Assembly: GCA_027923505.1 (NCBI GenBank) | Contig: BROI01000005.1 | Span: forward strand, 62,001-126,000 | Direction of reading: 5' to 3' | Length of the DNA stretch: 64,000 bases | DNA from: Mayamaea pseudoterrestris | Lineage: Eukaryota | Shown here: positions 6,338-50,232 of the stretch, piece by piece | Position numbering within the stretch: the first letter of the stretch is position 1 | How the letters are laid out: each line of letters starts with the position of its first letter | The notes under the pieces: model-generated | Seen by the model: only the letters and a program-made list of their open reading frames with translations | Database searches by the model: none | What the model was told of the DNA's origin: nothing | Made by a program: the position numbers and the translations under genes

Positions 6338-8485
6338 TTAGCTTCGGTCAGTTTCCATTTGCAAAGTCCAGTCATCGTCACCGTCATCTGCATTTGGAAA
6401 TTCGGGAGGAATGCGCGTACCTGTTCGGTTGTTGTCGTTATCCACAAACGTGCTTGACAGGTTTTCGGTGCGAGGAGTCTCGTGAATGTCGCGGGTGTTG
6501 ATATTGTTACTACTGATATTGCTATTATCGTCATCCACATGCATGCTCACTTCCATAATGGCTTGCAAGGCGCTTGTCTCGACTGCATCATTGAGACTGT
6601 TGCTCGATTCTAACGAACCAAGGTCTTCGCCAAAACCAGCGGCGTCCGTGGGCCGGTTCAATTGCTGTTCACTAAAATTGAAATTATCTTCATTGTGTAT
6701 TGAGCTTACTGTGGATCGCAGCGATGTGGAAGATAGAGGTCGTCGGTGCATCACCACTTCACCGTTCATGAAGAAGAGATATGATTCGTCGCGATCGTCC
6801 TCGTCCGTGCTTCCGTGATGAAACACCACAGACGAGCCGGCTTGACGGCTTCCAGACGACGTCTGACTGCCTTGCCGCACAATCGTGTACTGGTGCTGCT
6901 GAACGACGCGAGGAGATAGGGAAATCTGCGGGCCTGGCAACCTCGTCAAACCTGCCGATTGTTGCGGCCCATGTTGATGCAGGTGATGTCCATTTCCATT
7001 CTCGTTGCTGTTATTCCCCATGCGAGGGTTGCTGAGTGAGACTTGTCCATGCGCGACAGCCGGCAATTCATAGCGACAAAAGAAGAATAGCATGGAATGA
7101 GCCATGAACAAGACGGTCGATGTCAAGGCCGTGTATGAAAATCCGAACGGAAAGGAAAAGAGGTAGTAATGAAAGAGCGAAAAGAGGAGGAAGAATATGC
7201 GAGGAAAGTAATGCATGCCTTGGGCAGAGCGTAGACTGAAGAGGTGAATGCGAGTATGAGGCAATGATGATTCACGAGCAAAACAAAACAACCCATTCTA
7301 TGCGTACCTAATGACAGAAAAAACTTCACAAAGCCACACCAAACTCAGCACCATAAAGGCCAAGAACTTGTCCCCGTGATAAAATTCGGTCAGGAAAAAG
7401 CAGAGGCCAATCATTTGCGGAACAAACACCAAGTTTTGCAGCAAATGCGTCGTCACCAATGTCCACACCGATTGTCGCAGTCGAACCTGCGCCTGCAGCG
7501 AGTGGGTAAAGTCAAGCATGCGCTCCTGCGTTTCGCGGAGCGTAAAGGAAATGAGCGTTGTAGTTGTAAAAAAGAGAAAGCTCGTTTTGATGACAACGGC
7601 AAGTTTGGATAAAAAGGGTTGGTGCCATAAGAATGGCGGTGATGCGAATGGATACGTCTGATGTGATCGGCGGCTCGAGTAAAGTGATCTTTTTGTATTG
7701 TAGAAGTTGTAGTCCGAGTAGTAGTGATAGTATTGACCCGTCGTGGCGAATTGAAACTGCTGCTCCAAATCAGTAATTGTGTCGGTGCGTGGATTGTAAA
7801 CAAAGAATGGTTGCTGATTTTGATCGCTATTCATTAGCCCAATGATCCAGTTCATTGCGACTGTCTCTGGACTTGTAAGCCTGTGAACAATTTTTTGCAG
7901 AAAGGGCTCTCCAAAGCACCGAACGTCGCGTTTTGCAACAACTACATGCTGGACTGTCAAATTTCGGTCACGACAAACGTCTGGAGTCAGCAACAGGTAG
8001 CCTTTGGTAAATGAATAAGAAAAGATGCTTCGCGTCATATTTTGTGCAAATTGCTTTGGAATATTGCAAGTTTCGTTCATTGCAGTAACATTATCCTCTT
8101 GCTTTTGTTGCTTGGAAACAAAGGATGCTTGCTGCGTTGCTGTGTCATCGTCGTCGTCCAGAACGCTGATATGCGTCACATCCACGCCATTTCTTGCAAA
8201 TTCAGGTATAGAAGTCAGACAAGTAGACGGTATTTTGTATTTCATATACGATTTGACAGAGTTTATATGACTTCGTGATCCATTTTCGCCTCGATGGACA
8301 AAGGATAGATGCGCCAGAAGCAGCATGCCAAAGCAGCAGACGGCCAAGACGAGCAAAACATGCTCCAAAATGCTTCGAGTCCGAGCACTTAATTTTCGGA
8401 GTGTCTGTGTACATAGCTGATGATGCAAGTTGAACAAGACTCGCTCCATGGCGGATGGGTGCGCTAAACTCGGCGACGACACCAT
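6338..8485 (-). CDS. TMEM259: Membralin (TMEM259) homolog, 2 exons (intron 7236..7307)
   Basis: Motifs ERVLF..LEHVLL..LLAHLSFV, ISFTLRETQ and MIGLCFFLTEFY..DKFLAFMVLSLVWLCE. A GT-AG intron joins FSVI-SLRS..FPRIFFL..YELPA in frame. Confidence 0.88.
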
Positions 8486-8621
8486 GGTGATTTTGTGTTG
8501 CGTTTTGCGTTTGCGCGAAATTTTTTAGCGTCGGACTGGTATTGAATGGGTACCGGTGCGATTTTAGTCTTACCGCGAATGGCTGAACACGACAACCTGC
8601 GCCTCACAAATTTCCGTCACC

Positions 8622-9467
8622 ATGGCGTCCTCCTTGATGTCTCGACGGCTGGTTGCGAAAGCACCATTCGCCCAACCGATTGCGAGAAAATGCCTGCAAT
8701 CTGAAGTTGTAAACTATCAATTAAATCATTCACCATTAGCTCGTTCATTTTCGAGTCGACCGCCTCCGCCTCGCCTCCGATTTCCTCCCGGCTTTGACTC
8801 GATCGCGCAGCGCGCCGTCCGGGGCGACCAGGATAACGTTCGACCACACGTTGTGACGCTATTTCCCGGCGACTTTTCGGATGATTCTGATTCCATCTTT
8901 GACACGGAGGAAGCCTATGGCGGTGAACGAAAGAATGCTGCTTCTGCAGCTGACGACGACGACAAGACTGCCAAAATTATGGAGGAACTAAAATTTTTGG
9001 AGCAGCAAGCCGCTGCCAAAAAGCAACGATGGCTCGACAACAATGAGCCTCCCGTTCGCGTTTCGGAGATTGACGAGCGAGGTCGCGCCTACGGACGCGG
9101 CGGTCGCAAGACGGCGTCGGCGCGTGTTTGGATCCAACCGGGATTCGGACAAGTCTTGGTGAACAAACGACCGTTCGTCGAGTACTTTGCAAGACAATCG
9201 GACCGTGACTTGATATTGGAACCCTTAGTGGTGACGGAGACCTGCGGCAAGTTTGATGTGACCATCATGGTGCAGAGTGGCGGCCTCACTGGACAGGCTG
9301 GTGCGGCCCGACACGGAGTGGCGAACGCCTTGAACCACTACAATCCCGATTTGTATCGGTATCCGCTCAAGCGCATGGGCTTTTTGACGCGCGATGCGCG
9401 CATGGTGGAGCGAAAAGTTGTGGGACGCGTCAAGGCGAGAAAGTCGCCGCAGTGGGTGCGTCGTTGA
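8622..9467 (+). CDS. MRPS9: Mitochondrial ribosomal protein uS9
   Basis: GRGGRKTASARVWI, GGLTGQAGAARHG and LTRDARMVERK..KARKSPQWVRR, with an Arg/Ser-rich N-terminal presequence. Confidence 0.93.
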   Translation: MASSLMSRRLVAKAPFAQPIARKCLQSEVVNYQLNHSPLARSFSSRPPPPRLRFPPGFDSIAQRAVRGDQDNVRPHVVTLFPGDFSDDSDSIFDTEEAYGGERKNAASAADDDDKTAKIMEELKFLEQQAAAKKQRWLDNNEPPVRVSEIDERGRAYGRGGRKTASARVWIQPGFGQVLVNKRPFVEYFARQSDRDLILEPLVVTETCGKFDVTIMVQSGGLTGQAGAARHGVANALNHYNPDLYRYPLKRMGFLTRDARMVERKVVGRVKARKSPQWVRR

Positions 9468-9525
9468 GTGCAACGAGGTTTGGCTACTGTTTACGTAAAC
9501 ATGGATCATTACGCATATAATATAT

Positions 9526-10420
9526 CTATGTTCTACGCTTTACATATGTCCCAATCCAGTTCACATCTGTATCGTTGGCATCCAGCTTCCAGTCCCAGTT
9601 ACCAAAGAGTGGCGGCTTGTTGAGAACCATTCCAGTGACATTGACCTGTTGGAGCGATGTATTTGCAGCAGCCATTAGGCTTTCCACTTCACTTGGCGCA
9701 CAATACTTGTTCCAGTCATGCGTTCCAACTGGAATATACTTCATAATGTATTCGGCGCCAAGGATTGTCAATAGATATGATTTCATGGTGCGATTAATGG
9801 TGGAAATAAAGAGTAATCCATTTGGCTTTAACAGTTTCGACGACGTTTGCAAGAGTGACGAAACGTCCGTCACATGCTCAATCACTTCGAGTAGACATAT
9901 GACGTCAAAGCCTTCCGCGTGCTGCGCCGCCAATTCCTCCGCAGTGGTGCACTGGTAGCTAATGGATTGCATTCGCGTCGAGCAGCAAGCTGTGGGCTTG
10001 GGCAGCCTCGACTAGCTTGGCGGAAGGATCAATGCCTGTCACGGTGGCACCAAGGCGGGCCAGTGACTCGCAGGCAAGGCCTCCGCCACATCCAATGTCC
10101 AGTGCGTGTAATCCAGACAGTGGTAGTGTTGTTTGGTTGGGATCGTTTGTCACCGTGTCTGGGCCGTGATGCTTGAGTATCATGTCTCGAATGTACTGAA
10201 TACGAATGGCGTTCATATGTATCAGCGGATTCTTCTTGGCATCCCACCAGCTATCATCGAGGGCACTGAATTTTTCAACTTCCTTGCTGGAAACGGAAGA
10301 GTTGTTTCGCATTATGATGTCGAGTCGACGACCAACAAAGGTCACTTTTGATGGCGCAGCCGTGACTTTAGCGATGCGTGATAGCGGCTGCAGCGCGTAT
10401 CTCGACATTAGTGAGCTCAT
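9526..10420 (-). CDS. COQ3: Ubiquinone biosynthesis O-methyltransferase COQ3/UbiG, reading frame broken at ~9973
   Basis: EVEKFSAL..WWD..LIHMNAIRIQYI and LDIGCGGGL..ESLARLGA lie in one frame; FDVICLLEVIEHV..STINRT..GAEYI..GTHDW lie in the next. No usable intron between them. Confidence 0.85.
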
Positions 10421-11277
10421 TCTTGTTGATGCAATAGTAAAAAGATGATTGTATTAACTGTAAGTGAGCATTTTAACTATTCATGGGACCTCCAATCGAC
10501 GGAAGAAAATAATGGCGAAAGCGTTTCGAAATCTCATAAGGCTGGTTAACGCTACGACAGAAATCCGAGGTTTATCCTCGCTAGTACTGAGGTATGGAGT
10601 TTTTTTGGGTCACATCCGGGTCTTTTCCGGGTTGTGATAAAAAAAATCCTTAAATAAATGCCGTCGGGGCTTAAGTAAAAAAAATATCCCTGCTCAAACT
10701 CTACAGCAAGGTTTAAATCGTCATACAGAAAAGTACTATCGTGCACGGAAAAGACATAAATCTATGTTAGTACTTATTAGGGTTAATTTTAATTAAGCTT
10801 ACACAATGTTACACACTGTTTTTATTTATGGCCTGTTTTATAGATACCTTTTTTACTTATGTATTATGACCCTTAACTCGCATTGGTTATAAAGCATGAC
10901 GCTCCTTTGGCAATTGCAAACAGTTCGTATGCAACTTGGATGGCCCAATAACAGCATTCAACACTTATTCCATCCTTTAATATACAAGCGGCAACGGTTC
11001 CTGATGTCTATAATGGTTATATGGTTGGCGCTGGCTTTTGAAACGAATTTGCTGAAGCATTACAGTGGGGAACTGCTATGACGTTACGTCATACGGTACT
11101 TAAAGTCACACCGGTACTTATCGCCGTCAGTCAAAAATCATCAAAGCCGGCGCTGTCGATGGAATCGATGGAAAAAGCGGTGGACCTGTCGTTTGTGTCA
11201 TTATAACTCTACCATCAAGTTGATTCGCCCCATATCATTCACTCATCCTGTACAAGATAATATCAACACCACCAGCT

Positions 11278-13223
11278 ATGAGTGATCAATATAACTTCAG
11301 TCACTTGAAGCCGGCTCACCGAGTCATCAATGTTGATTCTGAGTCTGATGATGACGATTTCGACCCTTTTGACAGCCATAGTGACCATGACACACCATCA
11401 ACTACCATTCGACCAGCTTCCTTGGCAAAAATTGACAGTGAAGACACAACTCTTGGCTTGATTCGTTTACCTGCAAATTTACCTGCAAATACACTTCAAC
11501 ATGAGGAAATTCTGGATCAATCAGATCAGGATTATCGCACGGGCACCATTGCTGAGTTAGTTGCGAGTAACAAGGATATTCCAGAACTATTGAAACTCAA
11601 AACAACAGACGAGTTGCAAGCACACCTTGGACAAATCTTTCATGGATTTTGTTCCATGAGGGATTTGTGTAACAAAAAGCGGTCATCATCTGCCTTTGAT
11701 GGTCTTGATACGAAATGGCAGGAAATACTGAAACAAAACAAGAGTTACTACACTGGCATTGTCGATCTCTTCATGACTTACATCTATGTTGCGCATGTGC
11801 TTGGAATCGAACTGTTTACTATACCCAAAGGATCCAAGGAGTTGCCAGTTTTGATTCGTAAAATTTTCGGTAAGAACTATTTTGCTGTTGTAATTGAGGC
11901 AGGCGTCGCTAGATTTCACACAAGCTTCAGTTCTTTTCGATGACAGCAATGACAGGTTCCAGCTTCAAGATCAAACATACAATGGCAAATGCAAAATCAT
12001 GCACCGTTGGGTGACGCAGCTAATTAAGAACGAGGAGATTCAATTGCCCTACATGTCTGCACTTGTTCCGGGGGCTTTTCAGATAAGCAACAATGCTCTA
12101 TGCAAAAAAACTTCACCAAATTCCTACGATAATGTAATGGGATTTCTTTTGACAATTGTTAACGCCATGTTGCTGTCCAAGGATGTAATTGGCTATAGAG
12201 GCAACCAGATATGCATGGCCTTGCCACGTTTAATTACATGTCAACGCTCCATGGGGCATGCAATACTTGGCTGTTTCTTTGATAAGGTAATTATTTGAGC
12301 TGAATACCTTTTGCCTTATCCTGTCTTCTAATCCCTTTATACAATTTTAGAGTCTTTTTGATGCACCATACTTTCAATCATTACTTGTTCGTGGTTCAGC
12401 TTTTGCTAAATTGATCTCGACAACCAATGGATGCATTCTACCTGCCTTGTGTTTGAACTTTGTTTTATACTGGCTTGCAGCTTCTTTTGATTCCACTCGG
12501 GACACTTTTGTTAAAAATCGTAACCTGGGGACAGGATTACTCCAGGTGCAGTCTCTGAATTCGGCTGGCAAAGAAAAATTTGGATTTGCATTCGAACGAA
12601 ACTACAAAACTGTTGTCTTGGAGGTATTCAACAAACTGTTTGGTGCTTCATTGTCTGAGGACCCATTGGAATATCGACGCAAGGAAATTCAAGTGAACTT
12701 TGGGACAGATCTTTTGGTCTTCTGTCTATTGCAGAAAAAGTTACCTTCCTTTGAAATCCATTTTGCAAAGTATACAAGGAATGGAAACGCCCGGACGCCT
12801 CCGTCTTCGAAACATAAGAAGCTCAAGAAGGAATTAACTCATACTCCACCAGCAAACATTTGTCTGCAAGGGAAAATGTCGCCAAACGAATACGAACACC
12901 CTCATAGGAAGACGTTGGAGGTTTTGGTACAGTCAACCTTACAATCGCTGGAAGCATTGGTCCATATATTGGAAGAGGATGCTGATTTGTACTGCTCCTT
13001 GAAGCAAAATTTGAATCAGGCCATTTTAGATTGTTTTTCGCAAGATAAAACTTCCGATGCAAAGATCGGGAATGTTCAAAAAGTGCTTGATGACATGGAG
13101 GACCAAATGGCCACCTTTCGTCCCATTCCTGGTGATACAACCTTTCGTGTATTCAAAGAAACAGTAATCAACTGTGTTACTTCATGCTGTGACCAAGCAA
13201 CTGCTACGTTCAAAGCACTCTAA
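11278..13223 (+). CDS. Island gene A: hypothetical protein, 3 exons (introns 11870..11930 and 12287..12350), ~606 aa
   Basis: Three ORF-track pieces join in frame through canonical GT-AG introns (KIF-VLFDDS; FFDK-SLFDAP). Confidence 0.7.
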
Positions 13224-13672
13224 CTTTTTATATAGAAGCCTAAATTTATACAGGAGCCTAAATTGAAACACCATCTTTTAACCGTGTGCTGTGCAATGCA
13301 CTGCCTTTTCACCTGTTATTTTCATTGAACTAAACAGTTCAAATAGAGATTCCAATGTTTTGGAAGGAAAAGAAAGGGCTTTTCAATCCATATGTGGACC
13401 GTGATTGAACAATCGCTGTAATGATAATTACTTTCATTGCGTGATTAAACGCATAAAGATACTGGTTGAAATAGACTTCCGGGTTATTATTGTAATATTC
13501 GAATGGTTTAATTCTTATGCGAGTGACAAAACATCCGGGTTAATAATATTTCTTGTGCGTTGGATGCAATCGCTTATGTTTATGTATCATTATATGTCAT
13601 CGCTGGAAACAAGTTTGCAATATAAAAACATCGCCAATTTGATCCAAGTGAACCGTTTGTCAGCATGTATTT

Positions 13673-14385
13673 TTGGAGGAACAGGATGTTCCTGTCCTTT
13701 TGAATTCCAAAAAAGAGTTAGCTTTTGCCACTCACGTGAAACTAATTGAGTCTGGTCTTACTCTCATGAAGAATGACATGAAGAAGCTACGTGACGCCGG
13801 ACATGAAGCCATTCGAAAGAAGGAATCGCTAATCTTCATGAATGATCAACAAGACTACTTTTCGGCTGTGGTGGATTTACTGAGGACCTACATCTTCCTA
13901 GGCAATCGCTTTGCTGACCAACTCTTCCAACTTACCAGGGGGAGTGAAGAAATGGTCACATTGTTTCGCAAGTTGTTTGGTAAGTGAAACATCTTGTATC
14001 CCAAGCATAACAATATATTCAGATTATCTAATAAGCGACAACAATCCTAGTTTTATTTGACAGCCCAGTCACTGGTTCCTTTACAATAGAGGCCACTAAT
14101 CAAATGAATTTCCTAGTGTATCAGCCTTTCAATGCATATAAGTGTCAAGGTTTTTCATTTTTTTACGACAGCATGATGCCGCTACTTCAATGGCTATGCA
14201 ATCAAGTCCGGAGGAGGCTGCCAGTTCCTTTGAGTGTGATGCAGGGTGATATTGTGGTGGACTGGCAGTCAAGCGATGAGCATGAGCGACCCAACATTCA
14301 CAATCATTCCATGATTTACACCGAAAATATGGCAGGAAATGGTAGGAAGGACTTGTTTGTTGATACTTTCCCATTGGCACAATAA
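13673..14385 (+). pseudogene. Island gene B: partial paralog of the gene A N-terminal region (intron 13980..14050); start not evident
   Basis: YFSAVVDLLRTYIFLG..LFQLTRGSEEMVTLFRKLF-VLFDS aligns with gene A YYTGIVDLFMTYIYVA..LFTIPKGSKELPVLIRKIF-VLFDD, with the intron at the same position and phase. Confidence 0.55.
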
Positions 14386-14815
14386 AAATATGATCTTTTA
14401 ACTACTATAATTAATTGACCTGTGTATTGAACTGGTCATCTGCCTTTAGAATGGTTTGGCAAAAAATGTCAATCGCCAATTCACACTCTGTTCTCGCTAA
14501 ACAACAACACTTTTCAGTTGACGCGTCTGAAGCCATAGTTACACCCCTGTTACTCGCTGGTCCACCTTGATTACATGAGTGAGAGGAGGCCGCCAGCTTC
14601 TTTGACTTTTGCAGTGTGATATTGTGGTGGACTGGCAGTGAAGGGGGTAGCATGAGCAACCTTCGTTAATATGTACTGAAAAGATGGCAGGAAATGGTAG
14701 GCAAGAGTTGTCTGTTGATACTGTATCCTTATCACTAGAAATATGGTTTCTCTATTATGTTTAGATAAGCTAACACTTGTCAAGTGCGTTCATAATGGTT
14801 TGGCGGCAAAATGTG
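14210..14815. repeat. Diverged ~370-bp-period tandem duplication
   Basis: GGAGG..GCCAG..GTGATATTGTGGTGGACTGGCAGT..ATGGCAGGAAATGGTAGG..AATGGTTTGGC occurs at ~14210-14470 and again at ~14582-14815. Confidence 0.75.
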
Positions 14816-15210
14816 AAGGATTTCTTCATATGCAATGCAGCCATGTGTTGTTCCATACCTGCAAATTCCATTTGATACAATCTCTTCAACAAGCGTGTAT
14901 CACCGTGAATCGGTTCCACCTCTATCTTGTGCGAGTCGGAGTAAGTTCTGTACGTGCTTGACAGATACACCAGTTGTGTTTTGAACTTGCTGTAAATAGG
15001 AACGTCTACAAGGCCGTTTCCGACTGTTTCCAGAGCCTGGAGACATGATCGAACAATCAATTCCATTGGCATTATTTTTGTTGCCCATTTTTGTGTATCG
15101 TGGTGCCTACGTTTTGTTGTTGTTCCTTTGCTTTTGCTTGCGCTCGACCTTTTCTTGGTGTTTGCTTTCTGCTTGGAATTGTGTTTCATATCTTCTGGAT
15201 TAAAGTTCAT
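14770..15210 (-). CDS. Island gene C: small basic protein paralogous to the gene A C-terminus
   Basis: MELIVRSCLQALE..IYSKFKTQL..MEQHMA..FTFCRQTIMNALDKC vs gene A LEVLVQSTLQSLE..LYCSLKQNL..MEDQMA..FRVFKETVINCVTSC. Lys/Arg-rich N-terminus resembles an NLS. Confidence 0.6.
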   Translation of the reverse strand: MNFNPEDMKHNSKQKANTKKRSSASKSKGTTTKRRHHDTQKWATKIMPMELIVRSCLQALETVGNGLVDVPIYSKFKTQLVYLSSTYRTYSDSHKIEVEPIHGDTRLLKRLYQMEFAGMEQHMAALHMKKSFTFCRQTIMNALDKC

Positions 15211-15480
15211 TCTAAAATTTCTTCCTATCTTCCTATCTTGCTTATATATTGTCTGATCTTACAGAGAATATATCTTTTTCCTCCTTGTAAGGTGCTCAAC
15301 CTTTCGCTTGGCTTCTGTCGTGACCTCTCGTTCCGAGTCGAAAAATGTCAATCGTCAGTGGGCATCTTTTCTCACATGCATCATGAAAGCACATGTCACA
15401 TTGGTGTTTTTTGTGAAAACACTAACTTTTGACGATGTAACTCAACGGCTTCTTCTTTAACTTTAAGTCTCGTATTCAAT

Positions 15481-15585
15481 TTGATGCGTTGTGAAACAGT
15501 GCGGTTTGATGCGTTGTGAAACACTGTAAGATGTGACATAACTTGTGCCCATTCAGTTTCACATAACTTGTGCTCATTCAGTTTC
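15481..15585. repeat. Two adjacent 25-bp-period direct repeats in a divergent intergenic region
   Basis: TTGATGCGTTGTGAAACA at 15481 and 15506; ACATAACTTGTGCYCATTCAGTTTC at 15536 and 15561. Confidence 0.85.
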
Positions 15586-15683
15586 AATATTATTGTCAAG
15601 TAAGCTGTTTCAAGTGTATATTTTCAACACAGGAACGAAAATACATCGTATTCTTACATTTTGAGCGGGAGATATTGTTTATT

Positions 15684-16370
15684 ATGTATGTCATTGTATG
15701 TTCTCGACCGTTCCCCACAGATTGCAAACCTTTCCCTACTTGGAAGTCGTTGTATCTGTATCACTGTGCATTCGCACGAGTACATCAATTAGATCTGATT
15801 CAGCATCTTAGGGCAAGTGGCTCCATTGAAATTAAACAGTTTTTACAAAAGTACGGACAAAGTTATACAGTACATGAATTGGATGATATTGTTTTTGGTG
15901 CAAAATCTCCTTGGGACGCCAAGCTTCGTTTTGCAATAATCAAACAATATCGATACATGTACGTACATGTGATGATGGGGTTTGAGACGAGACCAAGGAA
16001 ATACGGAAGATACAAGCTAGTTCGAAGATATATTGAGCCAACAATAAGCACCTACCAACCTCGTATTGTTTTGGATTGCACCAATTTAAAGAAAGCAACC
16101 ATGGCAAAAGATGCTACTGGTGCATGGGCATCAAATTGGAATTTAGGTTGGATGCAACTAAATGTGCCTGGGAGTGTACAAGAAACAGGACATAACTATT
16201 ACTACACTCCTGAGATTGGTTTCAGGTTGGTGTCTTTGGCGGAAGTCACTCAGTTTCGATTAAACTTGAGTCTTGTACAGGGCAATGGTTGGGAAGCGGA
16301 AGATCTTGCCATGTTCATGCTTCTCGAGCAACATCACAAGTTCGCTTCTGATCCTGTTAAAGACACATGA
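15684..16370 (+). CDS. Island MBD-like protein 1 (degenerate methyl-CpG-binding-like domain at the C-terminus)
   Basis: GWMQLNVPGSVQETGHNYYYTPEIGFRLVSLAEVTQF follows the MBD pattern GW..YY.(S/T)P.G....S..EV..F. First ATG at 15684. Confidence 0.6.
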   Translation: MYVIVCSRPFPTDCKPFPTWKSLYLYHCAFARVHQLDLIQHLRASGSIEIKQFLQKYGQSYTVHELDDIVFGAKSPWDAKLRFAIIKQYRYMYVHVMMGFETRPRKYGRYKLVRRYIEPTISTYQPRIVLDCTNLKKATMAKDATGAWASNWNLGWMQLNVPGSVQETGHNYYYTPEIGFRLVSLAEVTQFRLNLSLVQGNGWEAEDLAMFMLLEQHHKFASDPVKDT

Positions 16371-16385
16371 CTTGTCCAGTTTCGA

Positions 16386-17042
16386 CTATTTTTTTCCATA
16401 TGTATATAGTATTAGCTTCATGGCATATTCTTCTGAGTCAAGTTGAGAATAGCAACCTTCTTGGTCGTCTTGGTCAGGTTGTGACTTTTCCAAGAATTGA
16501 ATTGTGTACCACATGAATAGTGACACTTTTTTCAAGGAGTCCAACTCAAAAGCATACAGCGGGGTGTAGTAATACCACTTTTTTCTGGTAGAGGATTGTT
16601 CAACAATGCAAGACCACCCAATATTTTTTGGAAGCATCACTTTATTCCATTGTATCCTCCTTTCTGAATATGGGCTCATTGGTATACCTTGTCTATCACA
16701 CATGGTGCGGTGGTTTATGTGCATAGAAATGCTGTATGTGTGTTCGCATTCACACAAAATATTTTGCGTGGTTCCTCTTATGTTATTTGGGAGATGGATA
16801 TTGAAACCCATCATGTGCAGATCCATAAAGCGCATGGCTGATATCCTTTGTTCTGATGTTAAACTTTTCATGAGAGCAGTCATATTACTTTGAATTTCAA
16901 TTTTGGATAGTTTGTCTGATGGGTCTGGTTCCACAATTAAATCGACATAATCTGTTTGCGACAATAAAATATAGTTCCTTATAATGTCAATCTGTTTCAC
17001 GGCAAGCAGAAGTACATATTTTGTTGTCAGTACAACAGACAT
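16386..17042 (-). CDS. Island MBD-like protein 2 (degenerate MBD-like domain at the C-terminus)
   Basis: LPKNIGWSCIVEQSSTRKKWYYYTPLYAFELDSLKKVSLF, plus a terminal EEYAM helix shared with the two neighbours. Confidence 0.55.
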   Translation of the reverse strand: MSVVLTTKYVLLLAVKQIDIIRNYILLSQTDYVDLIVEPDPSDKLSKIEIQSNMTALMKSLTSEQRISAMRFMDLHMMGFNIHLPNNIRGTTQNILCECEHTYSISMHINHRTMCDRQGIPMSPYSERRIQWNKVMLPKNIGWSCIVEQSSTRKKWYYYTPLYAFELDSLKKVSLFMWYTIQFLEKSQPDQDDQEGCYSQLDSEEYAMKLILYTYGKK

Positions 17043-17359
17043 ACCAAGCTATTTCGTTTAGATTGTTTCTTTGTTGATATTTGACCAATATTGTGTTGTG
17101 CGTCTTGCAACTGACTGCTAAGGTGCAACACTCGCTCATTCATCGCCAAAAAAGTCAACTGTAATGAAACGTAGACATTAAAGGATATATATCCGGGTGA
17201 CTCGCAGATTTTCTAAGTAGTCATGATTGGTGCGCCATGGTGTGTCATTTGGAACAAAATGTTTGTTTGGTGGAATCGACGACCGTTGAAGCTTGACACC
17301 AAACAACAACATCAAGGTTCATAAATTTGCTACGAGACAATAATTCCAACAATTGCATT

Positions 17360-18016
17360 ATGAAGGTGGTTATTGAAACCAAATTCAATCCCAAAGGAGA
17401 ACGTTTTTCTGCTCATGTTTATAATTATATGTTCTGCTCCGCTTACTCAATTGTTTTTGGTGTAAATAGATACGAAACTATTGGAAAATTCGGAATACAT
17501 GATCTAGTTCTTAAAATAATGGGCATTCCACTTCCACTTGGATGTGAGCGTCTAACAAGAGTTGTGCTGGGGCCTGAACAGAAATATTACAAAGATTATC
17601 TTTTGCAGTTTAAGGAAGTAACATCATTCGTTCGTATGGGATTTTGGATGATATTGAATGGAAGCAATATCACTTTTGTTCGAACATACTCAGATTTGCA
17701 TATGGGACTGAACAAGAGACCAAAAAAAACATTACAACAACTTTCAACTTATCATATTGAACCCCCATTTTCATTGTCAAGAGATCTATGTCGGTTATGG
17801 GGACACAATTGGATTCAAATGTCAGTTCCTAGAATGAAAGATCCTGGCGGAAAACATGACAAGTACTATTTTTCACCTCGTTGCGGATTCAAATTTCGGT
17901 CTGTTCCGGAAGTAAACAGATTTCTTTCAGCATTGGAAAGGGTGAACGAACCAGACCCTAGTATTGCAGAAGAAATTGCCCTCAGTTATGTGAAGTTATT
18001 CAAACACGCCGCTTAG
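17360..18016 (+). CDS. Island MBD-like protein 3 (methyl-CpG-binding domain with canonical residues)
   Basis: NWIQMSVPRMKDPGGKHDKYYFSPRCGFKFRSVPEVNRFL aligns to MeCP2-type [40 protein letters not shown]. First ATG at 17360. Confidence 0.75.
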   Translation: MKVVIETKFNPKGERFSAHVYNYMFCSAYSIVFGVNRYETIGKFGIHDLVLKIMGIPLPLGCERLTRVVLGPEQKYYKDYLLQFKEVTSFVRMGFWMILNGSNITFVRTYSDLHMGLNKRPKKTLQQLSTYHIEPPFSLSRDLCRLWGHNWIQMSVPRMKDPGGKHDKYYFSPRCGFKFRSVPEVNRFLSALERVNEPDPSIAEEIALSYVKLFKHAA

Positions 18017-18194
18017 TTGCTTATCCATATAAGGTTAAGACACATCTTTACTAGGAAATGTGTTTTGTATCTCGACAAAGTAGCATTCTTGAAGCGTAAT
18101 TTAGTAATCGAAATAAAAGTAACACAAACTTTGCTTCATCCAAAGCTCCTAAAGTAGGTGCTCCGGGGAATACAATCCTTTTGTTTGTAGTCCT

Positions 18195-18775
18195 ATTTTA
18201 TCAACAGTTGAAACGCATGTTATAATTAAAAGGTCCGTTGGAAAATATGGTGATGCCTTCTAACTATTCCATGTTGGCGATAAATACCAGTTTAACAAGT
18301 GAAACCTATTTATTGGTATGAGGTTTATCAACTGACACCTAACAAGTCATTCTTTATCAACAGTTGAAACGCATGTAATACTTTTTCAATTAGGAATCCT
18401 GGATCTACAAACCGTTGAAATAACTATTCATTTATTTTGCTTAATAATTTGCGACTATATATTGATATGCACGTTGAAAAATGGTGACGCCTTCTAACTA
18501 TCTTGTTTTGGCGATAAATGCCGGTTTATCAACTGAATTCATTCTGTATCAACAGTTGAAACGCATGTTCCTTCTTTCTTGACAGTTGAAACGCAAAACA
18601 TAATTTAGAAAACCCGGATCTTGAAGCCGTTGAAATATCTATTTAGGCGCTTTGCGAAGTGAATTACAATTAAACATTGTTATATTGAACCGTTGAAACG
18701 TTTTGGTGATGTCTTTTTCTGTCAGTTTTGCAAAATCATTTATTCCAACGCTTCATTTGGCAGTTGAAATGTGTT
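18195..18775. repeat. Degenerate tandem repeat array with palindromic core TCAACAGTTGA
   Basis: TATCAACAGTTGAAACGCATGT is exact at 18199, 18355 and 18547, partial at 18581. A ~60-bp ATGGTGA.GCCTTCTAACTAT..TTGGCGATAAAT block occurs at ~18246 and ~18481, with many further GTTGAAA copies. Confidence 0.85.
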
Positions 18776-18844
18776 CCCCTTGACGGTAACATTTGTTGAT
18801 TAACAAAATGCTCATAAAATAGCAGGATCATTGATTTCAAAATC

Positions 18845-19656
18845 ATGGGGAAGGCTGCAACTTCGAAAGGAAAGGAGGATCCAAAGGGTCCCTCCAACAT
18901 TGTGGCAAAGCATGCCTTGTCACCACCTAGAAGCAGTAAGCAAGGGAGAGGAATTGAGACAAGACTTATCTCGCATCCAATTCATGCTGAACTTTCCCTG
19001 CAGCTTGTTACTTACGAGGACAACTTGGAGCGTCGAGATGCCTACAATTTCCCACTGAAAGATGGAATCAAGAATCCTCACACTTTGACCGAAAGAGCCA
19101 AAAATGCTGCCATTACTTACGTGAACAGGAGAATTCCAGGAACAGATGAAAACATGATGCAGTTGAATTCAACGTCTGGTGAAGCTTACCCCAGAGCTGT
19201 TTTTATTCGTAAGTTTCCAGCTCCTCCAACTCCTTTGGAACGTAAAGAAACCATGGATATCATGGAAGAAATCATGCGAGCTAGTGAGACGGGAAAGTTC
19301 CCTCCGCCCAATATTCGAAAAGTCGATTACACACCTAGAGATCGTGTCCGCCCTTTGGATGACTGTAAGTTTGTTGCAATGCTATTTACAAGTTTGATAC
19401 AATCTATTATGGTCCCCTGTATCACAGTTCGGGTCAAATGTTGCTGTTGTAACACAATTTACTAACCATATTTCATTTTTATTAAGTTCTCCATGATGCT
19501 ACCATTGAAACTTTGATTAAATCATTGTACGACTTTGAACATCTTAATGAAGAGTTTGCTGAAAGCTATGGCGATTTATTGGACAGCATTTTTGGTCATC
19601 CCACCAGCCATCGGTTTGCCAGAGACTTAGGAAGAGCCAGTAACGAGAGTGAATAG
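18845..19656 (+). CDS. Island gene D: hypothetical protein, 2 exons (intron 19365..19486), ~229 aa
   Basis: A GTAAGT..TAAG intron joins RPLDD-FLHDATIETLIKSLYDF..SE* in frame. Confidence 0.65.
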
Positions 19657-20090
19657 CTAGGAGAATAAAACCTGCCTCACTTAATGATCTAGTAGTACCT
19701 GTTATAAATCCAACTGCATCAGTTACAATTTCAAACCATTATACCATTTGTTGATATTGAACAAGGCTTTACAGAGGCTTGTACTTTAGAGCGTACGGTA
19801 CTGATATGCATATTTCATAGATACACTGTGCGAAAGAGTACAATATTTCCTACGTTTTCATCGTACAGTAAACCTATAAACCGAGCCCCCTGAACTGAAT
19901 AAGGTTTTCATAACCGCATCGAAAAGTTGCTTCCGTGGTGTGAGCCATCCGTTTGGCAAAGAAAAAACCATCGCGCCTCGTTCGATCTCACTCGAACCTA
20001 TCCTCCTTGCATATAGGATCCCTTCTTAACGCACTCTCATCAACTACTACCTCTTCATTATCATATTCATAAGTAACACTTTAACTAACA

Positions 20091-20873
20091 ATGCCGCAAC
20101 ACGAGCACATGGAGCGTCACGCCAAGCTGCACGGCCGTCGGTTCGACGCGGAGGAGCGCGAGCGCAAGCAGGAGGCCCGCCTCGTGCACAAGCGCTCCGC
20201 CTTTACGCAAAAGGTGCACGGCATTCGCGCCAAGCTCTTTCACGCGCGTCGCTATCAGGAGAAAGCGACGCTGCGCAAAACGATCAACATGCACAATCAG
20301 CGGGACAATAAGCATGCGAACGATGATGCCATTGCGGAAGGAGCAGTGCCAGCGTACTTGCTGGATCGACAGGGAGTGTCGCGGGCCAAGGTACTGAGTA
20401 ACACCATTAAGCAAAAGCGAAAGGAAAAGGCTGGCAAGTGGGAAGTTCCCATTCCAAAGGTCAAGCCAGTGGCGGACGATGAAATGTTCAAAGTGCTACG
20501 CACCGGAAAGAAGCAAGCCAAGTCGTGGAAGCGCATGGTGACCAAGTGCACCTTTGTCGGCGATACGTTTACGCGCAAGAATCCAAAGTACGAGCGATTC
20601 ATTCGGCCGACGGGTTTGCGCATGAAGAAGGCCAATGTGACGCATCCGGAACTTAAGACAACCTTTCAACTGGATATACTTTCGGTCAAGAAGAATCCAT
20701 CGTCGCAGCTATACTCGAGTTTGGGAGTCTTGACCAAGGGAACTGTGATTGAAGTCAATGTATCTGAGCTTGGGTTAGTGACAACGTCTGGAAAGGTGGT
20801 TTGGGGCAAAATGGCTCAAGTAACGAACAATCCGGAGCTTGACGGCTGCGTGAATGCGGTTCTATTAGTGTAA
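20091..20873 (+). CDS. NSA2: Ribosome biogenesis protein NSA2
   Basis: 260 aa with [47 protein letters not shown] and [10 protein letters not shown]. Confidence 0.96.
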
Positions 20874-20954
20874 CGAAATAAGTTCAACATGCATATTTAC
20901 CATCCTTTTCAACTATATCAGTAAGTAACATAGCTTCTACATTCGTAAGTTGTT

Positions 20955-21760
20955 TTACAGTTCACTTGCCGTTTGCAAATCGCTCCATCGCTGGCCTCCG
21001 TAATCTACCAGTAGCTCTCGCATTTGCATGTAGTTTTGCGTCGTCGGATTCGGTTTGTCGGGCAAATTGGATGGGAGAATCATGGCCATGATATCCATGA
21101 CTGTCACGGTATGGAGGCCTCCCATCATGCCTGTGTACAGTATATGGAAGAGGAGGAATGCGTGAGAATGTAATACTCTCAGTCAAGCAGCATTGTTGAC
21201 TGCATCAACACACTCATGATGCATTCATTCCTTCATTTATACTCTTGTCACTCACTATCAAAGTCCACATTCACGTCCGCACCCGCCTCCAGCAACAGCC
21301 GCGCCGCCTGCAAATGACCATTCTTGACGCACATGCTCAGTGGCGTCTCTCGCATGGTGCGATCGCCCACGGTGCGCTCGTCAATGGTGGTTAATGACGA
21401 TGTTGATGATGACGCATTCAGTTTCAATTGCGCGAGTAGCCACTCGATCACGTCCACTTGTCCGGAAATGCTGGCCAAGTGTAGACACGTTTCGCCCGTG
21501 GCAGTTCGTCGCGTATGAATCCAGTCGGAATGGTCCTGCAGAATGGATTGTAGTGTTTGCAGTGGTCCGTTTTGGCAGGCGCGAAAGAATTGCATGACTT
21601 GGTTGGCTTGTAATTCTTTATCGGTTATATCATCTTTATCATTATTGGCTACAGATACATATGATGTCGAGCCGTAGCATAGTAAAAGTAGTATAGCAGT
21701 TATGCTACGTAATTGGCTGCGTCGTCGATGATTCGCCATGGTGATGTTGTGATGGATCAA
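20955..21760 (-). CDS. Secretory-pathway ankyrin-repeat protein, 2 exons (intron 21131..21255), C-terminus ..ASEL
   Basis: Hydrophobic signal ITAILLLLCYG and ankyrin motifs GETCLHLASISGQVDVIEWLL and TPLSMCVKNGHLQAARLLLEAGADVN. Exon 2 reads SMMGGLHTVTVMDI..LLVDYGG..TASEL*. Confidence 0.75.
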
Positions 21761-21775
21761 GTGGCAATCAGAAGT

Positions 21776-24700
21776 CTATGACTGCTGATTGCCCTCGGTC
21801 GCTCGAATGCTACTTTTCCGCACAATGGCTACTTTAGCTAGATGGACAACAAGTCCTAGATGGTCTTGGTTTGTGGTTTGGATGTCGAGGAACGCCTGTG
21901 TCTTCCGAAGCTTCGTGGCCACCCGCTCGTCGCTGATGAAGTCACTTAGTTGACGCAATGAGGCACGAGTGATGGACGGACTTGGCGTATCGATATGTTC
22001 ACGACGACATCCGGAGCAACCAGCATGGTCTCGAATGATATAAGGCATACAGATGTGTCTGCCATCAACCTTTGGAATAACAATGCCTTGTCGACTCCAA
22101 TCGTTCATCAAATGGTTTATATTTAATTCTGCGCCGCGAACATCGTCCTGCCACACTAACAATGCACGCGCAGCAACTCGCCGATACGTACCCTGATTTG
22201 TTTCCTGTCGAGCCTGTCCTCCATTTTGTCGAGATGTTGATGCGATGCGATCGGCTGGGCGCGCTGGTGGGCGGTCATGTGTTTGACGGCGATCCGCCAC
22301 CGGAATCAGGCGTGTGTCGGATTGAAATTGGACACCACTGAAGCGGCCATCACGGCGTAGGGAACTGTTACTTGAGGTTTCGCGTGAATGGCGTTGCGCT
22401 GGGAGAATATCTGGTGGTACCAGCTTGTTAAATGGTCCTTTTGTTGGGAGTGAGACCGCTCGCAAAGAGTCGGTGGTGAAGACTTCGTCGATGGTAGTGC
22501 GCCATTCCTGCAATTTGGATTTGAGGTGTGCGCTGCCAAGGGCATGAACAATTGGACGGAGAATAAGAATGTCTGAACGTTCGGGCGAATCATGTAGATG
22601 TGCCTCAATGCAGTGTGCACTCCCGTTGTCAGTGTCGGCAAAATCGGACATTATTTCAATCAAATCACCGACGTGTATAATGACGGCACCGGTTGCTTGG
22701 AGGCGCTGAGGGCCACTGAGGGCATCCCAAGCGGTCGAAAATTCGTGAACGTTAAAGCGTTTGAAAAGATACAGCATGTTTCCTGCGAAAGGCGATGCTA
22801 CCACCCATGGTGAGGCGCCTCGATGGAGTAACTCGAGCATGTCATATCGATCCGGCATATGGAACATCTCGTGAAGGAACCAGAGAAAGTTTTTCCCATA
22901 TTTGAACATGTTTAAGCTTGTCAAACCTGCGGCCGGGAGTTGCATGCCGGACTCTTGGATGGTGGAAATGAAGTGCCAGGGTGTGAGCGCGCTGGTAAGT
23001 TGGTGTGTCTTGTAACGCAAACCCGACGCAAATGCCGCCGACTGGACGGCTTGAATATACTCCGGTCGCTCGAACATGTCAAAACAGTCAATGGCCGGGC
23101 AACAATAAAGACTGAATTTATTCTGATTGACCGCAGCTTTGTAGGCGCTCTGGAAAAAGGCAGAAACGTTTGCCGGCTTGGCCGTTGTGATGGTGGTCAA
23201 CTTTTCCTTGTCAGAGGATTTTATGCCATACACCTGGCAAGCAAATTTTAGACTCAGATATCCTGGCATGAGCCGATGACTGGCTGGATAGACTTCAGCG
23301 GATGAGGGGCCAATGTCCAAGCTTAGCGTGCTTGAATGGCAACCAAGGAAAGCCAAGCGAGTCTGGTGAATACCCAGTGTTCCATTAATGTAACCCTCGC
23401 GAGTAAACACGTGCGGATGCGACTGATATTTCTTTGGTGAGGGCAAGAGGAAATCAGGGTGCGAGTAGGAATTGGTGGTATACAAATCGACGAGCCGGCT
23501 CTCTGGTTGTTCGCAAGGCAGCATGTACTCCGAAGCTGACAGAACGGATGCGACTGTGACGCCAAAATCGGGTAGCTGGTAAACTTGTCGTGGTCTAGTA
23601 ACTCGGAGTACCTCAATGCTATGAATTGTATGTTCGTCCGAATGTGAGCGCTTGGTTGCACCGCTTCTACGCTCTAACACGCGAGCTGGCGGTTTCCTCT
23701 CGTCGTCTGACTCAGCAGAGTTTTGCGTGCGAATGTGTGCTGGGGATGAAACTGTTTTAAAATTGGCACCGAACATCGATGCGAGGAGATCACCGGCGTT
23801 GGGCGGTGCCGTGTTCTTGTCCGCCTTGTCGGGAGTCTGTGCCGCCGCGAAAGCATTTTTCGAAATAATGCAAAAGGGAGCAGGCACTGGTTCTTTCTGT
23901 CCTGGGAGCTGTAAGACTTTGAACTCCGCTAGGAACTTTGGCATATTCGTCTTGAGGAAAGGAATATGAAATTTTGCGCGCCATGTGGAAATCTTTGGGT
24001 CGCACAAGGCGAATACGAACGGTGCATCCAAAATGTTGGCGCGGTGGAACGCGGCAAGCTGAGGCGTGTTGTTGATAGCTTGGATCGACAGTTGTAGATA
24101 GTGCGAAAGCTTTTCTGTCCATCCCTTCTTTTCCAAAACCATACTTTTCCAAACGTTGTCAATGACCATTTTGGCACGAAGCGAAAGTTCCGGAAAGAGG
24201 AAGAGGTGCTCGTGCGCCTCGGAGGGATTGTCTGTGAACGAGTCCCATGAATCTTGCGCATCAAACATGAACAGCGAATCAATAGTCATCTTGTTTGGTT
24301 CCATTGTGCAAGCGCGAAGCCAAACTGGCAAAGTGGGAATGTCATCGAGCCACTTGTAACAGTCGTCCGAATATCCGGTGAAATCCATCAAGTGTATCTT
24401 GAGGTCAGCGACTGTGCCACACTTTCCAAGATCAAAGGGAACACCCAAAGGAAAACAATGGCCAGTCGGTAAAAGGAACGCGACGGACTGGACGCACATG
24501 GCGTGGCCGGCTGTGGCGGTTGATGCGAGCGCACAGATGGGTGGATCATGTTCTTGGTCTTCGAATCGCGGATACTCAGTGTGAGTGCCCTCGCCGACGA
24601 AAAAGTGAATGAAGGGGGAATCCAGAGGGGGAATATCCGTTCCATCGCAAATGAGAGAAACTGGGTGTGTCAACTTGTTGCCCCGCGGAATTACAATCAT

Positions 24701-25354
24701 CGAATTCTTGGAGGACGTCCACCACTCCTCGATGGGAGTCAACAAAGGTGCCAGACCGTCACGTCGAATGGAGAGCAGGATGGGCTTGATGCTTGCTGGC
24801 GCCTCAATGTTTCCAGGCTGCCAGAGGAAAGGGTTTTCATCGTCGACGCGATTTCCCGAAAGGAGCGAATGGTGGCTCGTCGAATGAGTCCTGTTGGCAC
24901 TACTTGAACGCTTGGGAATGTCGTCACCAAAAACGAAAGGGTCGTCGCATGATGGTCCAGATGGGAAAGCCGCCGCCATGAGGAAAGGTCCAACTTTGCC
25001 GACGCCTGGAACCTTAAAGGTGGAAAGATAGAATACTCCTCGAAGGGCCGCATGGCCCATGGCCTTGAAACTATGGTGGCCACTGCGGAAATCGAACGTC
25101 GAATTGTCCTTGGTATAATCCGCGTCGAACAGAGTAATCTTGGACATGGCTTGGTTCACCTCCATCGTCTTCTCCTTGCTGGTCAAGCCGCTGTCTCCAT
25201 CCGTTTGGAGCTCCATGCTGTCCGTTCGGTCCTGTTTTGACGGAACCTGAGTTCCCAACCACGTATCATCAAGAGGCGACTCCTCCGGAAGCAACAAGGC
25301 GACCGTAGGAGACCCCGAGAACGAGGCGAGAGCAGGAGGACTGACGACAGGCAT
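21776..25354 (-). CDS. Large orphan protein (1192 aa) with a C-terminal CCCH-like knuckle; possibly transposon-derived ORF1
   Basis: Uninterrupted ORF with C-x10-C-x2-C-x3-H (CMPYIIRDHAGCSGCRREH) after a disordered Arg-rich segment. No other recognisable domain. Confidence 0.6.
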   Translation of the reverse strand: MPVVSPPALASFSGSPTVALLLPEESPLDDTWLGTQVPSKQDRTDSMELQTDGDSGLTSKEKTMEVNQAMSKITLFDADYTKDNSTFDFRSGHHSFKAMGHAALRGVFYLSTFKVPGVGKVGPFLMAAAFPSGPSCDDPFVFGDDIPKRSSSANRTHSTSHHSLLSGNRVDDENPFLWQPGNIEAPASIKPILLSIRRDGLAPLLTPIEEWWTSSKNSMIVIPRGNKLTHPVSLICDGTDIPPLDSPFIHFFVGEGTHTEYPRFEDQEHDPPICALASTATAGHAMCVQSVAFLLPTGHCFPLGVPFDLGKCGTVADLKIHLMDFTGYSDDCYKWLDDIPTLPVWLRACTMEPNKMTIDSLFMFDAQDSWDSFTDNPSEAHEHLFLFPELSLRAKMVIDNVWKSMVLEKKGWTEKLSHYLQLSIQAINNTPQLAAFHRANILDAPFVFALCDPKISTWRAKFHIPFLKTNMPKFLAEFKVLQLPGQKEPVPAPFCIISKNAFAAAQTPDKADKNTAPPNAGDLLASMFGANFKTVSSPAHIRTQNSAESDDERKPPARVLERRSGATKRSHSDEHTIHSIEVLRVTRPRQVYQLPDFGVTVASVLSASEYMLPCEQPESRLVDLYTTNSYSHPDFLLPSPKKYQSHPHVFTREGYINGTLGIHQTRLAFLGCHSSTLSLDIGPSSAEVYPASHRLMPGYLSLKFACQVYGIKSSDKEKLTTITTAKPANVSAFFQSAYKAAVNQNKFSLYCCPAIDCFDMFERPEYIQAVQSAAFASGLRYKTHQLTSALTPWHFISTIQESGMQLPAAGLTSLNMFKYGKNFLWFLHEMFHMPDRYDMLELLHRGASPWVVASPFAGNMLYLFKRFNVHEFSTAWDALSGPQRLQATGAVIIHVGDLIEIMSDFADTDNGSAHCIEAHLHDSPERSDILILRPIVHALGSAHLKSKLQEWRTTIDEVFTTDSLRAVSLPTKGPFNKLVPPDILPAQRHSRETSSNSSLRRDGRFSGVQFQSDTRLIPVADRRQTHDRPPARPADRIASTSRQNGGQARQETNQGTYRRVAARALLVWQDDVRGAELNINHLMNDWSRQGIVIPKVDGRHICMPYIIRDHAGCSGCRREHIDTPSPSITRASLRQLSDFISDERVATKLRKTQAFLDIQTTNQDHLGLVVHLAKVAIVRKSSIRATEGNQQS

Positions 25355-50056: not shown

Positions 50057-50232
50057 CAGTAGTTAAGGGCTTGTTATTGTACATTCTGTAAGTCTATCTA
50101 TTGCAGATTGTATTCAGCCTCATCGACGTGATGAGGTCCGAGAAAGCAGCCAGTATCGAACAGTAGCGACAATCAGGCCTTTGTCGTACATGTTAAGACA
50201 GCAAAATTTTGACACGCTATCGCAAACCCTCA

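Follow-up and report, generated by a model that had tools for sequence, protein, structure and literature searches.

What lies between the genes COQ3 and NSA2 in the diatom Mayamaea pseudoterrestris, and did it arrive there on one chromosome copy or disappear from the other? We analysed a window of 64,000 nucleotides of this organism (NCBI GenBank assembly GCA_027923505.1, contig BROI01000005.1, positions 62,001 to 126,000 of the forward strand); all positions below are counted from its first letter. The window comes from the nuclear genome; its genes are compact and mostly intron-poor, and its GC content is about 50%. A gene for a UbiG/COQ3-type O-methyltransferase and the ribosome-biogenesis gene NSA2 stand head to head in it, and between them lies an AT-rich, gene-carrying block of about 9.4 kb, here called the island. 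In this diploid organism the island is carried by one haplotype and is missing from the other. We favour, at roughly an even chance of its being right, insertion on one haplotype: a composite piece without a transposase would have come from a dispersed repeat family that has decayed through methylation.

Both alleles are found in public sequencing data. Six sequencing runs were named for the island, four of them with at least part of it, and the assembled contigs of these four (X1 to X4; X1 to X3 come from two studies) were compared with window positions 6500-25500. In three of the four runs (X1, X2 and X3, covering both studies), contigs carry an empty allele in which position 10510 is joined to 19902, the 9391 bases between being replaced by 45 other letters. 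The empty-site contig has a depth of 111 in X1, 17.8 in X2 and 6.2 in X3; the island contig over 14950-20007 has a depth of 100.3 in X1 and 19.2 in X2, and the X1 flanks, where the haplotypes collapse, reach about 230-250. The presence of the empty allele beside island contigs at similar depth indicates that the island is on one haplotype only. Filled and empty alleles at one site are what is seen in a transposable element (TE) insertion polymorphism in the generic sense. The X3 empty contig is 617 nt long and covers 10139-10510 and 19902-20111, where, gaps aside, 4 and 9 of its letters depart from the window. These differences in the flanks mark the empty contigs as a second, diverged haplotype rather than as a chimera made from window sequence. 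In the flank contigs listed (6500-10500 and 20000-21300) the second haplotype diverges from the window by about 0.3-4.4%, one example being 72 letters and 13 gaps per 1649 nt at 8406-10057 in X3, so the organism is highly heterozygous. The fourth run, X4, gave eight short pieces, of which five are island pieces of 151-160 nt identical to the window at a depth of 2-3.4; we read the X4 pieces as traces of the same organism carried over, and not as evidence of a relative.

The right junction is crossed, by 106 nt, by an error-free contig of 5058 nt (14950-20007) that is identical in X1 and X2. Recovery of the same contig from two different studies argues against misassembly. On the left, the match of one X2 contig begins at 10560 and is preceded by 25 unrelated letters. 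We conjecture that the true left end may be 10560, and that the 45 letters of the empty allele may be the diverged counterpart of 10511-10559 (49 nt). The start codon of COQ3, at 10420, is 90 nt from the island boundary and that of NSA2 is 189 nt from it. On the empty allele, the two start codons are therefore 90 + 45 + 189 = 324 nt apart, a spacing that matches what a head-to-head housekeeping pair would have. Both flanking genes have clear matches: the two exons of the left gene match NCBIfam TIGR01983 with E values of 2.2e-40 and 2e-25, and the right gene aligns over its full length with solved NSA2 chains (phmmer, E 1.1e-113).

The island differs from its surroundings in composition. Its GC content is 0.39 between 10511 and 19901, compared with 0.50 in the flanks. 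All ten one-kb windows spanning 10001-20000 have values of 0.365-0.433, and the 54 one-kb windows outside have a mean of 0.502 (sd 0.025, minimum 0.46). A two-breakpoint likelihood fit, with a gain of 136 log-likelihood units, places the GC shift at 10406 and 20092. These breakpoints coincide with the flanking genes' start codons, and the short native promoters of both genes thus fall inside the fitted segment. The observed/expected (o/e) ratio of CpG is 0.73 in the island, 1.15 in the left flank and 1.09 in the right flank. CpG shows the largest dinucleotide change in the island; CpA and TpG rise to 1.29 and 1.28, up from 1.16 and 1.19 outside. The GC content at third codon positions is 0.31-0.48 in island open reading frames (0.56 in the gene fragment A2, described below), compared with 0.52-0.66 in the neighbouring host genes. 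The preliminary description, made by eye from the letters, had placed an AT-rich, CpG-poor block between a head-to-head COQ3/NSA2 pair and had pointed to the other haplotype as a place where an empty site might be seen; the sliding windows, the gene matches and the joint at 10510/19902 agree with it on each count. Mutation resembling repeat-induced point mutation (RIP) was considered and rejected (TpA/ApT 0.70; (CpA+TpG)/(ApC+GpT) 1.33). As far as sequence can tell, the low GC, the CpG deficit and the CpA/TpG excess would be best explained by long-term cytosine methylation and deamination of a repeat family; a foreign origin or a process like RIP fits less well.

Parts of the island recur in other sequence contexts. 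Its last 50 bases, 19851-19900, are matched up to 19900 by two X1 contigs that then continue into different sequence, and in X3 the match of one contig begins only at 19851 and follows at least 255 unrelated letters. These recurrences indicate that 19851-19900 is a dispersed module ending where the indel does. The right end is common to at least two further contigs, and the left end at 10560 is backed by the one X2 contig mentioned above. A 14,550-nt contig includes a copy of 13679-14001 at 86% identity (44 differences in 323 letters) together with short pieces corresponding to about 10853-10875, 13403-13433, 13558-13676 and 19851-19896, one of them inverted; its depth is haploid-like (82.4 in X1, 18.7 in X2). 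Near the left end, the summed depth over 10840-11080 is 272-320, compared with about 100 for single-copy island. A joint from 11076 back to 10912 ('goes back 165'; depth 246 in X1 and 53 in X2), found along with loose ends at 10912-11048, indicates that a 182-nt unit is in tandem in other copies. The contigs over 11038-14979, which hold the genes A1 and A2, are deeper than 14950-20007 in X1 and X2, by factors of 1.58, 1.72 and 1.76, and both runs have them breaking at one and the same position, suggesting a second, identical copy of that 3.9 kb. At one loose end at 11000 (30 letters, aligned by eye), comparison of another copy with the window shows four substitutions and one gap. Each substitution sets C or G in that copy against T or A in the window, two of them at CpG; in this small sample, the direction of change points the way expected from deamination.

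The island is rich in open frames. Six stop-to-stop frames of at least 200 codons are found in the 9.4 kb, compared with a mean of 0.01 and a maximum of 1 in 300 Markov simulations, so these frames are genes or very recent ex-genes. They make about seven gene-like units, with introns placed where GT..AG pairs would join open frames. The longest unit, A1, consists of three open frames (239, 134 and 290 codons), which a GTAAGA..AG and a GTAATT..TTTTAG intron would connect in frame. No Pfam, PDB or homologue match was found for A1. Its third exon has a Protein Atlas score of 0.79, below the level of a lead, and an AlphaFold model with a pLDDT of 41.3. A word-based search of 5.8 billion proteins with A1 exon 1 and with one of the island's other genes, paralog c (see below), gave no match. 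Downstream of A1 lies A2, which resembles A1 exon 1 (30% identity over 102 residues, E 2e-11, and 37% over 49 residues, E 3e-12). A2 is probably a pseudogene whose downstream frame is not restored, and its profile had no match in the PDB. A supposed family B, pairing 12876-13223 with 14770-15210, was discarded: the similarity is only at E 0.033, and 12876-13223 is the C-terminus of A1. The rightmost gene, G7, consists of frames of 215 and 56 codons linked by GT..AG candidates with the acceptor ..TTATTAAG; family and PDB searches with it gave nothing above chance. Rfam and tRNA scans of the whole window found no RNA gene. Repeats are modest: Tandem Repeats Finder reports four short tandem arrays in the island, and the array upstream of G7 (repeat families D1 and D3) has a blastn identity of 69% over 197 nt.

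Three of the genes encode related proteins (paralogs a, b and c, 218-228 residues) with 21-25% mutual identity and a common core, W..P..YY.P..F..S..V..F. Paralogs a and b are tail to tail with 15 nt between them; b and c are head to head. Paralog c matches Pfam's family for methyl-CpG-binding domains (MBDs), PF01429, with 29.7 bits (cut-off 21; E 4.9e-7), is up to 56% identical to the MBDs of proteins P0003 and P0032, and aligns with solved MBD2/MBD3 chains at E 0.004-0.005. In the alignment to the MBD2 chain 2ky8_A it keeps the R, D, Y and R positions. We take the R-R-D-Y positions to be the methyl-CpG contact residues, from work on MeCP2 and MBD2. In paralogs a and b, aligned with c, both arginines and the Asp are replaced. 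These two alone have no Pfam match above threshold; they are tied to c by the alignment and by a profile that retrieves MBDs. Paralog b also matches the MBD proteins P0019, P0020 and P0028 in BLASTP, with E values of 2e-5 to 3e-4. The AlphaFold model of paralog c has a mean pLDDT of 52.7, with only a strand-strand-helix stretch at residues 152-194 reaching 60-75.

The profile was built from the three paralogs and searched against 1.84 billion representative proteins (E <= 1e-3). It matched 61 proteins, 44 of which carry a Pfam MBD, and a protein combining heat-shock factor (HSF) and MBD is among the matches. Ten others comprise P0004, proteins of the HSF, HMG and Tudor types, and six without a family. 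The remaining seven are bacterial proteins with LRR_5 (P0001, P0011, P0013, P0017, P0029 and P0034) or Flg_new_2 (P0040); we regard them as spurious, with no BLASTP match to island frames. The only match that extends to residues before the MBD is P0004, named by its source as a hypothetical protein of Mayamaea pseudoterrestris. Its last 150 residues align with paralog a (30% over 165 residues, E 8e-23) and with paralog c (35% over 132 residues, E 4e-12), and its N-terminal 580 residues contain DUF6570 and Helitron_like_N. The region of about 145 residues N-terminal to the MBD belongs to no known family and is common only to the paralogs and P0004. Single-protein scans of metagenome contigs with P0004 or paralog a returned nothing. 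On our favoured reading, the MBD-type triplet would derive from host methyl-DNA readers. By analogy with the arthropod element CopiaMBD, its proteins may, for example, read methylated DNA to target or protect the element. Two adjacent tandem duplications at 15480-15586 (22 nt twice and 25 nt twice, 95-96% identical) lie about 100-200 nt upstream of paralog a and may be promoter elements. In its gene content the island is thus not quite what the preliminary description had proposed, about seven orphan genes, some spliced, with repeat arrays: the long frames, candidate GT..AG introns and the modest arrays are there, but three of the supposed orphans are MBD-type paralogs.

To which class of mobile DNA might such a block belong? 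A Pfam scan (E <= 0.01) of the 97 stop-free frames of at least 42 residues between 10450 and 20000 matched only the MBD, apart from two chance-level matches. No transposase, reverse transcriptase (RT), RNase H, integrase, Rep, recombinase or capsid domain was found in these frames. A DNA transposon with terminal inverted repeats (TIRs) would be expected to show those repeats, a target-site duplication (TSD) and a DDE transposase, and none of the three is seen (for the repeats among the 25 of 37 pairs listed, for the TSD by eye); nor are the terminal direct repeats, RT, integrase and RNase H of a long terminal repeat (LTR) retrotransposon. For a Crypton/Starship or Maverick/Polinton element, no tyrosine recombinase, pPolB, integrase or capsid is among the Pfam matches, and for an endogenous virus there is no viral domain in the 97 frames. 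Paralog a and A1 exon 3, two of the roughly seven island proteins, have no tblastn-confirmed relative in IMG/VR, a search that reaches close relatives only. The lack of a TSD is consistent with a Helitron, and a strong imperfect palindrome lies near the left end: the DNA fold of 10560-10660 has an energy of -17.9 kcal/mol (z -4.66), matched by none of 200 shuffles. Helitron hairpins are expected about 10-20 nt from the end. A small hairpin is found at 10566-10580, and the right end has no notable fold (z -0.16 and +0.77). By eye, the Helitron termini TC..CTRR between A and T are absent on either strand at 10511, 10560 and 19900/19901, and the frames hold no Helitron Rep (HUH), PIF1-type helicase or remnant of either. 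Each of the classes considered (Helitron, TIR element, LTR element, recombinase-borne cargo element, endogenous virus) fails at least one of the defining features tested.

Based on these observations, we suggest the following sequence of events. The block from 10511 (or 10560) to 19900/19901 would have been inserted into the compact bidirectional promoter of about 324 nt between COQ3 and NSA2. It would be a composite member of a dispersed repeat compartment, mobilised in trans, with a cargo of multi-copy, lineage-specific genes, namely the A family and the MBD-type triplet. We infer insertion as the direction of the change, mobilisation in trans and methylation.

Several points weigh against this reading. 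No TIR links the two ends among the 25 of 37 repeat pairs listed, no LTR or other terminal direct repeat is shared between them, and no TSD is visible by eye when 10511 or 10560 is compared with 19900/19901. The empty allele is not a clean site, as it carries the 45 letters, and the left boundary is uncertain (10511 or 10560); no piece spanning the left junction is among the contigs listed. A deletion with filler DNA fits the 45-letter junction equally well. The island genes have kept their frames long and intact, unusually for a non-autonomous element in decay. The other copies are evidenced by short matches (22-50 nt), loose ends and depth ratios in assembled contigs. The arginines that contact methyl-CpG are missing in two of the three paralogs and in P0004, and the insertion site is a CpG-rich promoter, at odds with an MBD-guided preference for methylated DNA. 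The link to Helitrons is one protein, P0004, possibly a fused gene model. The preliminary description had taken the island for a non-autonomous mobile element, with no visible mobility gene, inserted in the bidirectional promoter, and had named single-copy ends as a point that would count against it. The empty site, the recurrence of sequence at or near both ends (the last 50 bases up to 19900, the multi-copy unit near the left end) and the lack of a mobility gene in the Pfam scan bear this out in part; the missing TIR, LTR and TSD and the 45 extra letters do not, and deletion stays a live alternative.

The alternative that survives best is that the island is the older state. It would be a resident, fast-evolving, lineage-specific gene cluster (A family, MBD triplet and G7), from which the other haplotype lost 9.4 kb and gained a 45-base filler with no transposition. 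We consider this possible but unlikely. It accounts for the 45 letters at a site that is not clean and for the lack of TIR, LTR, TSD and mobility gene. The genes are intact with spliceable introns, local paralogs in tandem and inverted order at 21-37% identity imply old local duplication, and parts found elsewhere would reflect ordinary multigene families and small dispersed repeats. However, long residence is hard to square with a composition and codon third positions unlike those of every neighbouring gene, and other contigs end the last 50 bases exactly at the indel boundary. A 9.7-kb spacer would also be atypical for a head-to-head housekeeping pair in a gene-dense window.

A more specific form of insertion is doubtful. 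The island might belong to an undescribed diatom family of cargo elements that has no transposase, is moved in trans (possibly by a Helitron-type Rep/helicase) and encodes its own MBD-type readers of the host 5-methylcytosine mark. The MBD proteins would then target or protect the copies or titrate host readers. A Helitron-type partner is a lead only, from the Mayamaea fusion protein. Were this true, mobile DNA would have captured an MBD a second time, independently of arthropod CopiaMBD, and for the first time in a protist and a non-retroelement.

Foreign origin is improbable. The island could be an endogenised large DNA virus or another horizontal acquisition, AT-rich by source and methylated after integration. 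It is AT-rich, present on one haplotype only, and has orphan genes without a homologue in 5.8 billion proteins; in addition, methylation marks virus-derived genes in several eukaryotes, according to the available portion of PMC12344493. Yet the genes have putative GT-AG introns, the nearest matches of the MBD are eukaryotic MBD proteins and that of the wider module is a diatom protein. The 97 frames hold no viral domain, the two proteins tried in IMG/VR have no close relative there, and Phaeodactylum has only two candidate viral genes, again as given in the available portion of PMC12344493. A hemizygous mating-type or other allele-specific region of a heterothallic pennate diatom, held by selection, is less probable still. 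It would fit a block on one haplotype at a depth about equal to that of the empty allele in two independent studies, with intact lineage-specific genes, some of them chromatin-reader-like, and a preprint, known here by its title as cited in PMC12344493, ties methylation to monoallelic expression of a diatom mating-type gene; but no known mating-type gene was recognised, and parts of the island recur elsewhere in the genome. That the island is an assembly artefact or a contaminant joined between COQ3 and NSA2 is very hard to credit: the left 500 nt are repetitive and no left-junction piece is among the contigs listed, but identical 5058-nt contigs from two studies cross the right junction into the NSA2 promoter, and in each study the depth of the island contigs is at haploid level, like that of the empty allele.

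Table 1. Features of the island and its flanking genes (positions in the window)
Feature	Position	Strand	Evidence or remark
COQ3 (UbiG/COQ3-type O-methyltransferase gene), 2 exons	9526..10420	-	TIGR01983, Pfam methyltransferase domains
Haplotype-specific segment	10511..19901		9391 bases missing from the other allele; left end may be 10560
54-nt imperfect palindrome	10596..10649		Fold of 10560-10660; 36-90 nt inside the left end
182-nt multi-copy unit	10895..11076		Excess depth, backward joint, loose ends
A1, orphan gene, about 608 aa	11278..13223	+	Putative exons 11278-11869, 11925-12286, 12351-13223
A2, partial paralog of A1 exon 1	13652..13984	+	Stops at the splice position of A1 exon 1, ..FGK|GTAAG
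Diverged direct repeat pair	14211-14392 / 14583-14745		blastn 72.5% over 182 nt, E 2.5e-24; families D2, D4, D8
Orphan open reading frame, 146 aa	14770..15210	-	Open reading frame list; no family match
MBD-type paralog a, 228 aa	15684..16370	+	Alignment with b and c; match to P0004 C-terminus
MBD-type paralog b, 218 aa, most diverged	16386..17042	-	Alignment; BLASTP to MBD proteins
MBD-type paralog c, 218 aa	17360..18016	+	Canonical-looking methyl-CpG-binding domain, residues 148-195
Loose diverged repeat array upstream of G7	18189..18643		39-nt core x4 (18189-18605), 156-192-nt spacing; 61-nt pair
G7, orphan gene, about 250 aa, 2 putative exons	18845..19656	+	18845 to about 19418/19448, then 19487-19656
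NSA2 ribosome-biogenesis gene	20091..20873	+	phmmer to solved NSA2 chains, Pfam Ribosomal_S8e

Other parts of the window also show possible structural variation or chromatin-related genes. An orphan open reading frame of 1192 residues (21776-25354, minus strand) lies 0.9 kb past the NSA2 stop, 1.9 kb to the right of the island end, and has a host-like GC content of 0.52. It has no Pfam match, only chance-level PDB matches, and an Atlas score of 0.75, too low for a lead. The contig there (21853-25208) is at haploid level (depth 59.5 in X1, 17.3 in X2), and a weak joint from 21881 to 25423, with 24 nt on one side, skips 3541 nt; this region may be a second haplotype-specific segment. A 711-aa open frame at 33255-35387 (minus strand) has a sub-threshold match to the ZSWIM1-3 RNaseH-like domain, which is derived from MULE transposase (E 1.2e-5; 25.7 bits, cut-off 27.2). 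The one-kb patch at 34001-35000 is the only other CpG-poor one in the window (o/e 0.58). A run of chromatin-reader genes, with an MSL3 chromo-like protein, a 1490-aa bromodomain and PHD protein and an FYRN protein, occupies 35725-42822. Further right, 41843-52585 and 52585-63327 form a tandem duplication of 10,743 nt with one mismatch and no gaps, carrying FYRN-domain, Argonaute (PAZ and Piwi), PRP1/PRP6-type splicing-factor and EXS-family genes. It is either very recent, doubling the Argonaute gene, or an assembly artefact.

If the island is an insertion, it records a recent structural change in which the bidirectional promoter of two housekeeping genes was split on one chromosome copy, and a diatom then offers a natural experiment on allele-specific expression and on how methylation spreads. 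The locus can be tested directly, since cultures that two studies have already sequenced contain both alleles. The MBD-type triplet is the more unusual part of the locus. Compared with MBD2/MBD3-type proteins, paralog c has identical R-D-Y-R positions and scores above the Pfam cut-off; the paralogs differ from them in the region of about 145 residues before the domain, which has no known family, and in that a and b fall below the Pfam threshold.

Known diatom TEs are mainly Copia-type LTR elements with recognisable RT and integrase. The island has neither enzyme, and its methylation is a prediction from composition. It resembles the methylated TE regions of diatoms in being a CpG-depleted, repeat-linked block among genes with CpG o/e of at least 1, the signature expected if only repeats are methylated. 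In Phaeodactylum, methylation is restricted to TEs, as stated in the available portion of PMC12344493, which cites Hoguin et al. 2023. Gene-carrying non-autonomous Helitrons offer a second comparison. Like them, the island lacks TIRs, a TSD and a transposase of its own and carries apparently host-derived cargo, and the sole extended homologue of its MBD module is fused to DUF6570 and Helitron_like_N. The strong palindrome near one end may be a further likeness. Unlike them, the island has neither a Rep/helicase remnant nor TC..CTRR ends, and its palindrome lies 36-90 nt from the end. No MBD-carrying Helitron or diatom element is among the literature matches listed for Helitron or diatom combined with methyl-CpG binding and methylation.

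The closest parallel is CopiaMBD of arthropods (de Mendoza, Pflueger & Lister 2019), in which, according to the available portion of PMC6673714, a retrotransposon protein contains a fused MBD that is proposed to guide integration. As far as that account goes, the two have in common an element of the repeat compartment with an MBD of host origin; in the island one copy keeps the DNA-contact residues, and the island DNA looks methylated. They differ in that the island MBDs are three free-standing genes of about 220 codons in a stramenopile host, with no Copia polyprotein, RT or integrase, that two of the three copies are without the arginines, and that the insertion is in a CpG-rich promoter and not in methylated DNA. 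Mobile or repeat DNA encoding readers of its own silencing mark is documented, as far as we have found in the portions of the sources available, only for arthropod Copia elements. Set beside these systems, the island stands at about the midpoint between doubt and acceptance as a polymorphic non-autonomous repeat insertion with an unusual MBD-type cargo.

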